A stretch of 64,000 nucleotides of DNA from Escherichia phage HMD-6. The notes under the pieces were generated by a model that was not told the origin of the DNA, did no database searches, and saw only the letters and a program-made list of their open reading frames with translations. A program made the translations under genes and the position numbers. Of the stretch, positions 46,237 through 47,583 are shown piece after piece; the first letter of the stretch is position 1, and every line of letters begins with the position of its first letter. The stretch is from sequence record PQ505080.1; one strand, written 5' to 3'.

Positions 46237-46458
46237 TTAGTAAAACTGAAGAATGTCTTTTAAAGCGAAGTCACGATATTCGCCCTTGTCTACATCAAAT
46301 GCATGCATCAACCACTGCTCTTCTTTATGATACTCTGTAGATCCAAACCATAAACTAGGCTCAGTAACGCAGCGATCTGCAACAACACCTTTCCAGTTAC
46401 GGTATTTCATCCTGATCAGAACTGAATCGCAAGGATTGAATACCTTTTTCATCCCCAT
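46237..46458 (-). CDS. hypothetical protein (73 aa or shorter)
   Basis: ORF track; 5' part overlaps endo VII gene, start probably internal. Confidence 0.35.
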   Translation of the reverse strand: MGMKKVFNPCDSVLIRMKYRNWKGVVADRCVTEPSLWFGSTEYHKEEQWLMHAFDVDKGEYRDFALKDILQFY

Positions 46459-47002
46459 AGAAATCTCTCTCCTCAGTTTTCTTTATAAACTCCTGCATGT
46501 AGGCCTCAATAGCCTCATGCTTGGTGTACTCTGAATTAATGACAAGATCAAGATCCGATTCTGCCCGTGCAATAATCGTAGCTTTAGAGCATCTCCTCAA
46601 GAACTTTGTCATATCGTCCCTGTAGTTTTTGTGGAGCGGGAAGTCGCTGTAGTCTTTCTCCAGATAGTCAGCCATCCGGCGCAACGCCTCTGATAAACTG
46701 CAATCTGTGTACTCGTTACAGTATTTCATCCAGTATTTAAGCACATACCCCTCAAAGGTATTAGTGCATTGGGACAAAACACCCCTGCAACGACCAGTCA
46801 GATGATCATGATCTAAACAAGGCTTACGAAGTGGTTCGCACAAGATCGGATCAAGACCATCCTGCTCTTCTGACAATTCTTTTCGAAAGTTGGCTATGTC
46901 CTTAGAATCTTTTAGCCACCCGCTATGAACGGGGGCTTTGACAGCTTTCTTTCTTATTTTACGCTTTGCGATAATCCCTCCAGATGCGCCCTGCCTATCC
47001 AA
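46397..47002 (-). CDS. recombination endonuclease VII-like (T4 gp49 family)
   Basis: C..C..LDHDHLTGRCRGVL..C.N matches endo VII zinc/active-site signature. Confidence 0.75.
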   Translation of the reverse strand: MDRQGASGGIIAKRKIRKKAVKAPVHSGWLKDSKDIANFRKELSEEQDGLDPILCEPLRKPCLDHDHLTGRCRGVLSQCTNTFEGYVLKYWMKYCNEYTDCSLSEALRRMADYLEKDYSDFPLHKNYRDDMTKFLRRCSKATIIARAESDLDLVINSEYTKHEAIEAYMQEFIKKTEERDFYGDEKGIQSLRFSSDQDEIP

Positions 47003-47583
47003 TAAGCATCTGCAAGATCGGCCTTACCTTGTACCAAATTGATCCCATCCAGGAACCCCGGTTCAGATACTTCACAGGCCTTAACCATCAACTTTTTATC
47101 CATCGTAACAGGTTTCTTCACAGTATGCTCTTTACCTGTCCTTTTGTCAAGCTTTTTCTTCTCCTCAAAAGCAAGTTCTTCAGGAAGATGACTACGAGCA
47201 AACTTTTTGGCAGTTGTTGGTGTCACTGTGTGGACCTTAAACAGGCCGTCATTTTCACAATCTGCTAAAGCATCCCAAAGCATAACTTCAAGACCATAAA
47301 ACAACCCAGCCAGTTCACGTGTGGCATCTCCTCGCGATCCGAAGGAGAGCCCTTCCATAACCACGGTGTCAACGCCGTGCGTGTGGATATAATATCTGAC
47401 CTGTTTGCAGATCCAGTCAATACGCTCAGCAGCTGTTGCAAAAGAAACCGTCCCTGGTTTCTTTTCTTTTGCAGACGAGCTTTGGGTTCGTAACACAACC
47501 TTATGAACAGGCCTACCATCGTCCCATACAACGCAGGCCGTGTGGGTAAGAGACTGGTCTATAGACAGCAGTCTTTCTCTCAT
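46954..47583 (-). CDS. RuvC-like resolvase/nuclease (RNase H fold)
   Basis: N-terminal LLSIDQSLTHTACVVW resembles RuvC GIDPG motif; 3' end overlaps next gene by 49 nt. Confidence 0.45.
   Translation of the reverse strand: MRERLLSIDQSLTHTACVVWDDGRPVHKVVLRTQSSSAKEKKPGTVSFATAAERIDWICKQVRYYIHTHGVDTVVMEGLSFGSRGDATRELAGLFYGLEVMLWDALADCENDGLFKVHTVTPTTAKKFARSHLPEELAFEEKKKLDKRTGKEHTVKKPVTMDKKLMVKACEVSEPGFLDGINLVQGKADLADAYWIGRAHLEGLSQSVK

Follow-up and report, generated by a model that had tools for sequence, protein, structure and literature searches.

The analysed window, a stretch of 64,000 nucleotides (nt) from Escherichia phage HMD-6 (sequence record PQ505080.1), encodes on its minus strand two intact nuclease genes that lie back to back. 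The upstream gene codes for a RuvC-like junction nuclease and the downstream one for a homologue of endonuclease VII (endo VII) of phage T4. Both proteins belong to families with characterised junction-resolving members, the active-site residues are conserved in both of them, and the two genes have remained syntenic over long divergence. Comparison of the gene junction with those of related phages suggested that the endo VII gene would not start at any of the annotated positions but at an AUC codon within the 3′ end of the RuvC-like gene. As a whole, a conserved two-nuclease module in the replication/recombination gene chain of Vequintavirus, with endo VII being made from AUC, appears to us somewhat more probable than its alternatives taken together. 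The features on which this reading is based are the following:

46954..47583, minus strand, RuvC-like junction nuclease gene, 209 amino acids (aa), ATG at 47583-47581 and TAA at 46956-46954
46397..46972, minus strand, endo VII-like gene, putatively 191 aa from the ATC at 46972; the mechanical open reading frame (ORF) extends to a TTG at 47002 and comprises 201 aa
46970..46972, minus strand, ATC, putative non-canonical initiation codon (codon 11 of the mechanical ORF), from the junction comparison
46977..46981, minus strand, Shine-Dalgarno-like GGAGG, 4 nt before the ATC and within the last RuvC-like codons, from sequence reading
46954..46972, minus strand, putative 19-nt overlap of the two genes with endo VII in the -1 frame relative to the RuvC-like gene, from the junction comparison
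46877..46969, minus strand, basic N-terminal tail and first conserved helix of the endo VII-like protein (AKRKIRKKAVKAPVHSGWLKDSKDIANFRKE), from conservation and the structure model

An earlier note on this DNA, which was made from the letters alone, had described two overlapping ORFs at 46397-47583, and we recovered both of them there on the minus strand (46397-47002, 201 aa from TTG; 46954-47583, 209 aa from ATG). The window represents an rV5/FV3-type Vequintavirus. The 2-kb stretch around the locus shares 99.4% identity with the Escherichia phage vB_EcoM_SYGMH1 (Vequintavirus, species FV3), and its identity with 120 phage records of the rV5 group reaches at least 90%.

The downstream ORF is a full-length homologue of T4-type endo VII. 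It matched the Pfam family PF02945 with 31.7 bits (cut-off 23.6 bits, E=1.4e-7) and PHROG 423 across the whole profile (E=4e-37, with the alignment beginning at residue 29), and these profile searches bear out the endo VII-like call of the earlier note. At the sequence level residues 61-172 matched residues 37-152 of T4 endo VII (1e7d, E=2e-4), a match that begins with the catalytic motif and runs as far as the C-terminus. With 36 homologues as input, an AlphaFold2 model reached a mean predicted local distance difference test score (pLDDT) of 85, and values below 50 were confined to the first 9 and the last 20 residues. When this model was used for a fold search of the Protein Data Bank (PDB), the only significant matches were T4 endo VII, with 152-156 of 157 columns aligned, template-modelling (TM) scores of 0.68-0.73 (normalised to the T4 chain) and about 23% identity in the structural alignment. 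The full-length T4-type fold is present in the model, including the C-terminal helical domain, which forms the dimer in T4 endo VII.

Residues D64, H65, H67 and N81 are invariant among the 36 homologues and E84 is nearly so; the five residues line up with D40, H41, H43, N62 and E65 of the T4/RB69 gp49. In the distinct relatives D-H-H-N is found at the catalytic positions in all but two fragmentary rows, and the fifth position is E, L, I or A. Of the signature described in the earlier note, the catalytic part (LDHDHLTGRCRGVL...N..EG) is present, but the CxxC is not: the cysteines are spaced as C55-x6-C62 and C72-x6-C79, and what had been given as CN really reads C-T-N. These own cysteines of the protein are not conserved in the homologues. 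When aligned with RB69 gp49, the zinc ligands C23, C26, C58 and C61 are replaced by D, L, S and T, and the Cys4 zinc site is absent. All four T4-type cysteines were present in only 6 distinct retrieved endo VII relatives (L014-L172). The relatives were retrieved with patterns derived from this subfamily and the sample is biased accordingly; within it, zinc-less endo VII-like proteins seem to be common in environmental phage contigs. We also considered whether loss of the zinc site is tied to the RuvC-like neighbour and rejected this idea, because the Cys4 site is missing in nearly all retrieved relatives, neighbour or not.

The conserved part of the endo VII family starts at about W29 and includes R40 and Q47, which like W29 are conserved across the family. 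In our model the helix 33-46 lies in a stretch of mean pLDDT of at least 94. Ahead of this conserved part, a Lys/Arg-rich tail recurs in relatives down to about 30% identity. Taken together, the protein resembles T4 endo VII (gp49; 1EN7, 1E7L, 2QNC, 2QNF) in its PF02945 match, in its LDHDH...N..E catalytic motif, in the similarity along the whole protein (191 vs. 157 aa) and in being encoded by a large lytic myovirus. It differs from the T4 enzyme in that, besides the exchange of the four zinc cysteines, the loop between them is shorter, in that it carries an extra Lys/Arg-rich N-terminal tail of about 18 residues, and in that its gene lies directly behind a RuvC-like gene and would start with AUC.

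The upstream ORF matched PHROG 159 ('RuvC-like Holliday junction resolvase') with E=1.8e-38; like the similarity of the downstream ORF to endo VII, this goes far past what chance would give. The Pfam RuvC family (PF02075) was matched by 4 of the 21 members of its family (best E=1.8e-6); it is carried by relatives at about 31% identity and 95% coverage, and P0019 and P0021 are among the relatives that have it. When the family profile was aligned with Deinococcus radiodurans RuvC, residues 1-110 gave a weak match (E=0.088); in this weak alignment D9 falls on D7 of the D. radiodurans enzyme and E77 on the Glu of its AIEDQ motif. In the family alignment, the conservation of D9, E77, D189 and D192 is complete or reaches at least 90%. 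The latter two residues lie in a D-L-A-D-A motif, the D-x-x-D of which we take to be the equivalent of D138-x-x-D141 of RuvC. An hhalign comparison with an E. coli RuvC sequence aligned only the segment around E66/E77, with a probability of 7%. The AlphaFold2 model of the protein had a mean pLDDT of 91 and a predicted TM score of 0.88. In the PDB fold search RuvC proteins occupied all of ranks 1-10 (E=1e-7 to 2e-4; TM scores of 0.69-0.75, target-normalised), the matches including 4ld0 (E=1e-7) and the RuvC of the lactococcal phage bIL67 (4ktw). The RuvC call is based on the fold search, on PHROGs and on Pfam-positive relatives because sequence searches against the PDB were uninformative. The PHROG match, the fold ranks and the conserved acidic residues agree with the earlier note, which had seen a resemblance to RuvC-type resolvases in the N-terminus of this ORF.

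Like bacterial RuvC (4LD0, 1HJR, 7W8D) and the phage bIL67 enzyme (4KTW), the protein has an RNase-H-like fold of the same topology and conserved acidic residues in the RuvC motifs, which read here IDQS, xEGLSFG and DLADA. As with phage and poxvirus RuvC enzymes, there is no RuvAB partner nearby. In contrast to the solved RuvC structures, with which it shares only 13-17% identity, it falls below the Pfam RuvC model and has an insertion that spans about residues 135-160, is modelled as two beta-strands and also sets it apart from the short relatives P0019-P0022.

That the upstream ORF codes for a RuvC-family nuclease and the downstream ORF for an endo VII homologue, both assignments taken together, is in our judgement very likely correct. 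Three observations weigh on the other side. The RuvC-like protein of the window matched no Pfam family at E<=1, so that the PF02075 cut-off was not reached; its search against PDB sequences returned chance matches only (that of its relative P0020 returned no match); and without a zinc site, the stability and the specificity of the endo VII homologue may differ. The earlier note had allowed that the RuvC-like call might be wrong, and several GenBank records do label the gene 'RNaseH', which together with the missing Pfam match would fit an RNase H or another non-resolvase enzyme of RNase-H fold. We give this explanation hardly any weight, since RuvC proteins fill the first ten fold ranks while neither RNase H1/HI nor RNase HII appeared among the 50 PDB fold matches listed, members of the family do match PF02075 and the conserved acidic motifs agree with RuvC. 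Classification of the ORF as a different RNase-H-fold enzyme, which the earlier note had named as the result that would refute its call, did not come about. Moreover, a separate 5′-3′ exonuclease of the FEN/RNase H type is encoded two genes upstream of the RuvC-like gene. The label 'RNaseH' is an unsupported misnomer at the level of the fold. For the downstream gene one may argue that its product is a sequence-directed His-Me-finger nuclease, either homing-type or packaging-associated, which would leave the phage with only one true resolvase. In favour of this, the zinc site that defines T4 endo VII is missing, the basic tail is an added feature, and the homing endonuclease F-CphI is reported to use the endo VII catalytic motif as well (PMC6083498). 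Nevertheless, this explanation is decidedly unlikely, because the protein resembles T4 endo VII over its full length, C-terminal helical domain included, and because the gene occupies a fixed syntenic place in essentially all relatives examined, unlike the scattered homing genes.

We compared the loci of related phages. Endo VII is immediately preceded by a RuvC-like gene in Vequintavirus, Henunavirus, the PVP-SE1-like phages, the Stephanstirmvirinae phage KP13-16 and Vibrio phage 193E37-1. The pair is split by one or two small genes, or by a gene of 212-232 aa, in Plateaulakevirus, Certrevirus and SSBI34. When loci were picked via the RuvC-like gene, it was located directly upstream of endo VII in 11 of 14 cases. 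Similarly, 25 of the 26 IMG/VR loci of the close endo VII subfamily had a RuvC-like gene upstream. The basic tail is absent from the 54 more distant endo VII loci, and none of these had a RuvC-like gene within 3 kb. The RuvC-like family also occurs apart from endo VII: two N4-like Vibrio phages have no endo VII gene within 20 kb of it, and one metagenome contig has none within 5 kb.

For jumbo phages, Iyer et al. 2021 (PMC7824862) report that endo VII and RuvC resolvases are distributed in a 'nearly complementary pattern'. Endo VII and RuvC annotations also fall in different phages in a set of mycobacteriophages. The earlier note had called the presence of both families unusual. In general this holds, but in the present phage clade the tandem is the rule: carrying both families is atypical among phages at large and an old, stable trait of this clade.

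Two variants of the locus were observed on the way. In the Cronobacter phage CR9 (L006, 3292-3990) and the Salmonella phage SSBI34 (L003, 5557-6195), the extra ORF of 212-232 aa between the pair overlaps the 3′ end of the RuvC-like gene by about 41-44 nt, and in SSBI34 it has no precomputed Pfam match. In Raoultella phage Ro1 (IMG/VR copy L025, about 2424-2918), the RuvC-like gene is seemingly truncated or split: tblastn returned two pieces, and the shorter match of the RuvC-like profile stops 67 nt short of the endo VII frame. This could be due to a frameshift, an insertion or a sequencing error.

To define the start of the endo VII gene, we compared gene junctions of loci in GenBank, IMG/VR and metagenomes. 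In all 19 distinct junctions at which the two genes abut, the codon homologous to 46972 is ATC (15 junctions) or ATA (4 junctions), and a canonical start codon was found at this place in none of them. These junctions follow one scheme, in which GGAGG, GGGGG or GGGAG is followed after 4-6 nt by ATC or ATA and then by the basic tail. When an intervening gene is present (CR9/SSBI34 group, Plateaulakevirus, L054), the homologous codon is GTG (6 junctions), TTG (3) or ATG (1), preceded by the same Shine-Dalgarno sequence; ATG also stands at this place in L027, where a RuvC-like gene is missing from the neighbourhood. Canonical starts upstream of the conserved tail are absent in the PVP-SE1-like loci and in L026, L030, L038 and L117. 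In Hena1, L030 and L118 the RuvC stop codon and the ATC have one base in common (TAATC), and in KP13-16, L037 and L038 stop and start are shared as ATAG. These arrangements mirror the classical coupling overlaps TAATG and ATGA, with an Ile codon in place of the initiator. In L030 the reading frame of the Shine-Dalgarno motif is a different one, and a stop codon separates the motif from the ATC. Between 46972 and 46877, 8 synonymous and 2 non-synonymous codon differences were counted against L014 and 3 and 1, respectively, against NHEP1. Most of these changes are synonymous and therefore the stretch is coding.

The most economical reading of these junctions would be initiation of endo VII at AUC 46972, giving a protein of 191 aa and a gene overlap of 19 nt, and we regard this start as probable. 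Non-AUG and coupled starts are known from E. coli, such as the AUU start of infC and the ATGA and TAATG overlaps of stop and start codons. As in these cases, a strong Shine-Dalgarno sequence precedes an AUH codon here, and the upstream stop codon overlaps the putative start (TAATC, ATAG) or lies within 19 nt of it. It is different from the infC case that the codon is AUC or AUA, that its role is deduced from comparison and that its conservation, for one gene, spans several phage genera.

Several observations count against an AUC start. In E. coli initiation at AUC is usually very poor, the spacing of 4 nt between the Shine-Dalgarno sequence and ATC is short, and in principle the conserved Ile codon might encode an internal residue. 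As the lineages are related by descent, the 19 junctions do not count as independent, and according to our own grouping the canonical-start junctions (the 10 with an intervening gene and L027) seem to go back to about four separate rearrangements. L117 is an exception in that it keeps the ATC 52 nt past the RuvC stop, which means that a strict overlap of stop and start is not required. Finally, the mRNA between 46925 and 47020 folds no more stably than its shuffles (z=0.19), and on this basis we rejected an RNA structure that hides the Shine-Dalgarno sequence or the start. A phage-encoded initiator tRNA that reads AUC or AUA was rejected as well: the tRNA(CAT) at 61127-61201 has a G1-C72 pair and lacks the GGG/CCC anticodon stem. 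Its anticodon arm presumably resembles that of E. coli ileX (tRNA-Ile2, which reads AUA). On the supporting side, AUA can initiate efficiently in vitro within an optimised initiation region, in a study that covered AUU as well (PMC5499595).

Two related metagenome contigs attracted our attention. In L117 (150-360) an ATC and in its relative L116 (1-150) an ATT is located about 52 nt past the stop codon of the RuvC-like gene, after AAGGAGGG. L117 carries in-frame stop codons upstream of its ATC.

Other modes of endo VII synthesis have to be compared with initiation at AUC. The mechanical ORF, some GenBank records with 201 aa and the 49-nt overlap of the earlier note all place the start at TTG 47002. 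This TTG is one of the canonical start codons, the frame of endo VII is open from 47023, the representative of the 201-aa cluster (P0023) bears names from GenBank and UniProt records, and KP13-16 likewise has a TTG at the homologous place. On the other hand, no GGAG-type Shine-Dalgarno sequence is found within 20 nt upstream of this TTG, and the codon is a by-product of the RuvC-frame codons TAT-TGG (Tyr-Trp). In NHEP1 (L002) and L014, which are 91-96% identical, an in-frame TAG separates TTG 47002 from ATC, and the underlying change is a synonymous GGC-to-GGT exchange in the RuvC frame. Moreover, Hena1 has CCT at the homologous place, and the PVP-SE1-like lineages, L026, L030 and L038 have no canonical start there. 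A start at TTG 47002 is unlikely, if still the strongest of the competing starts, and the 49-nt overlap stands for the mechanical ORFs but not as an overlap of genes. Several GenBank records, SYGMH1 and rV5-type records among them, use another canonical TTG at 46876, which would yield 160 aa, no overlap and 77 intergenic nt upstream. This start has a slim chance at best. It would drop the conserved first helix (W29, R40, Q47), the segment 33-46 of which is confidently modelled, and the alignment with PHROG 423 already begins ahead of it, at residue 29. In addition, the supposed intergenic stretch is open and Lys/Arg-rich in all lineages compared, and with the 8 to 2 ratio against L014 its changes are mostly synonymous in the endo VII frame. 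The conservation of W29, R40 and Q47 and the basic tail in relatives therefore rule out 46876 and 46729 as start positions.

As another mode, a programmed -1 ribosomal frameshift shortly before the RuvC-like gene ends would produce a RuvC-endo VII fusion. In the abutting lineages other than the Vibrio phage, endo VII is indeed in the -1 frame relative to the RuvC-like gene, a canonical start is missing in many lineages, a GGAGG lies upstream, and the RuvC stop of the window is embedded in A AAA TAA. However, the overlap contains no slippery heptamer of the type X XXY YYZ, and the run of A at the stop codon is not conserved (GGG GTA TAA in Hena1). In L030, a TAA two codons ahead of the ATC closes the endo VII frame, and the ATC itself overlaps the RuvC stop; in L117, 52 nt with in-frame stop codons separate the genes; and Vibrio phage 193E37-1 (L005) shows another frame relation. 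Lineages with intervening genes have GTG or ATG exactly at the homologous codon. We consider the frameshift very improbable and rejected the fusion because of the lacking heptamer, the closed frame in L030 and L117 and the differing frame in L005.

An AUC start bears on the public annotation of the locus. GenBank records disagree on the start of endo VII, giving 201 aa (TTG), 160 aa (TTG 46876) or, in one record, 110 aa (ATG 46729). In the records with starts at 46876 or 46729, no gene overlap is annotated, and the annotation of SYGMH1 treats 46877-46953 as intergenic. If true, initiation at AUC or AUA would explain why three public starts exist, two of which lose conserved sequence, and gene callers restricted to ATG, GTG and TTG would keep mis-annotating endo VII. 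It would also be a clear phage case of a conserved AUH initiation codon, which possibly limits a toxic nuclease. As for names, the downstream gene appears in public records as 'EndoVII packaging and recombination endonuclease' and the upstream gene as 'hypothetical protein' or 'RNaseH' and, in recent records, as 'RuvC-like Holliday junction resolvase'. As far as annotation goes, the two-nuclease pair is already public, and both genes belong to well-known families, so that the basic picture is unchanged. In the literature we found no paper on a pair of RuvC-like and endo VII nucleases in Vequintavirinae. What is new here is the tandem as a conserved trait of a clade against the trend of one family per phage, an endo VII subfamily without zinc site and with a basic tail, and, very probably, an AUC or AUA start codon tied to the end of the RuvC-like gene.

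The roles proposed below are modelled on T4 gp49 and on the RuvC enzymes of bacteria and phages: both proteins of the pair would clear branched DNA. Branched DNA would arise from the recombination-dependent replication of the phage, and its removal would allow the genomes to be packaged. Both enzymes are probably structure-selective nucleases, which before or during packaging would rid replicating or recombining phage DNA of Holliday junctions and other branches. The RuvC-like enzyme may, by analogy, act as Holliday junction resolvase, and endo VII may be a broad-spectrum debrancher and mismatch cutter as in T4. For a division of labour along these lines, with the RuvC-like enzyme working on junctions and endo VII on debranching and mismatches, we see the chances as evenly balanced; the earlier note had likewise suggested that one enzyme may serve packaging or debranching and the other recombination. 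Since junction-resolving families usually replace one another in phages, a clade that keeps two of them is a natural system in which their roles can be compared, the candidate roles being Holliday junction resolution on the one hand and debranching or mismatch cutting for packaging on the other.

According to the proposed mechanism, endo VII would be translated from AUC 46972, 4 nt past the GGAGG inside the last RuvC-like codons. Its synthesis would be weak and tied to ribosomes that finish the RuvC-like gene, and such a weak coupled start might hold a potentially toxic nuclease at a low and fixed ratio. T4 endo VII is toxic when over-made, and because of such toxicity weak initiation at AUC would suit an endo VII enzyme. 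A further-reaching version can be put forward only tentatively, as we think it more likely wrong than right: in the rV5/phi92-like myoviruses endo VII would be hard-wired to the RuvC-like gene and made only via the conserved AUC or AUA by ribosomes finishing that gene, so that both proteins form one functional pair at a fixed, skewed ratio. Under such hard-wiring, the lineages that lost adjacency would have switched to GTG, TTG or ATG, with the exception of L117. The basic tail of this endo VII subfamily might contact the RuvC-like protein or DNA.

The two nuclease genes belong to a chain of tightly abutting minus-strand genes with ATGA and TAATG-type overlaps along it. Judged from this arrangement, they look co-transcribed as parts of one tightly packed chain, which comprises the following further features:

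45212..49406, minus strand, putative transcription unit, from a consensus scan only
49406-49377, minus strand, sigma-70-like promoter, 11 of 12 consensus matches, consensus match only
47903..49042, minus strand, 5′-3′ exonuclease (FEN/RNase H-type), first large gene of the chain, PHROG 107 E=1.4e-71
47580..47906, minus strand, 108-aa ORF, function unassigned, PHROG 7583 E=5e-56
46237..46458, minus strand, small ORF of 73 aa (57 aa from ATG 46410), PHROG 3715 E=5.6e-26
45241..46224, minus strand, DnaQ-like 3′-5′ exonuclease with C-terminal zinc ribbon, last gene of the chain, PHROG 403 E=9e-111, RNase_T E=3e-4
45235-45212, minus strand, intrinsic-terminator-like hairpin, 10 pairs followed by a T run, consensus match only

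The 5′-3′ exonuclease gave in addition a weak match with PF02739 and is labelled exodeoxyribonuclease in GenBank. The stop codon of the 108-aa ORF shares an ATGA overlap with the ATG of the RuvC-like gene, and in relatives a small ORF is annotated at the same place. The small ORF at 46237-46458 overlaps the 3′ end of the endo VII gene and showed weak WYL/SH3-like matches below the Pfam cut-off; SSBI34, CR9 and Hena1 likewise have a small gene between endo VII and the DnaQ-like exonuclease, and in L004 a small gene is found between the RuvC-like gene and the exonuclease. The DnaQ-like exonuclease (PHROG 403, 'DNA polymerase exonuclease subunit') combines weak N-terminal helix-turn-helix matches with a C-terminal CxxC...CxxC zinc ribbon, an architecture that is unusual for a proofreading subunit.

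Some additional observations concern the surroundings of the chain and the database records. An HNH endonuclease gene (49686-50150, minus strand) and a small ORF that some records call 'transposase-like' (49403-49696, minus strand) are located just upstream of the putative promoter of the nuclease chain. At 60477-61289 (plus strand), seven tRNA genes of the window are clustered, namely those for Arg-TCT, Tyr and Ser, an odd one whose anticodon is called with 4 bases, Thr, the one with the CAT anticodon and Pro. Lastly, the nuclease region shares at least 90% identity with 20 GenBank records of the MG0656xx series that are named 'Campylobacter phage', 18 of which give Campylobacter jejuni as host; among the matches listed the identity is about 95-96%, and these deposits look like mislabelling or contamination.

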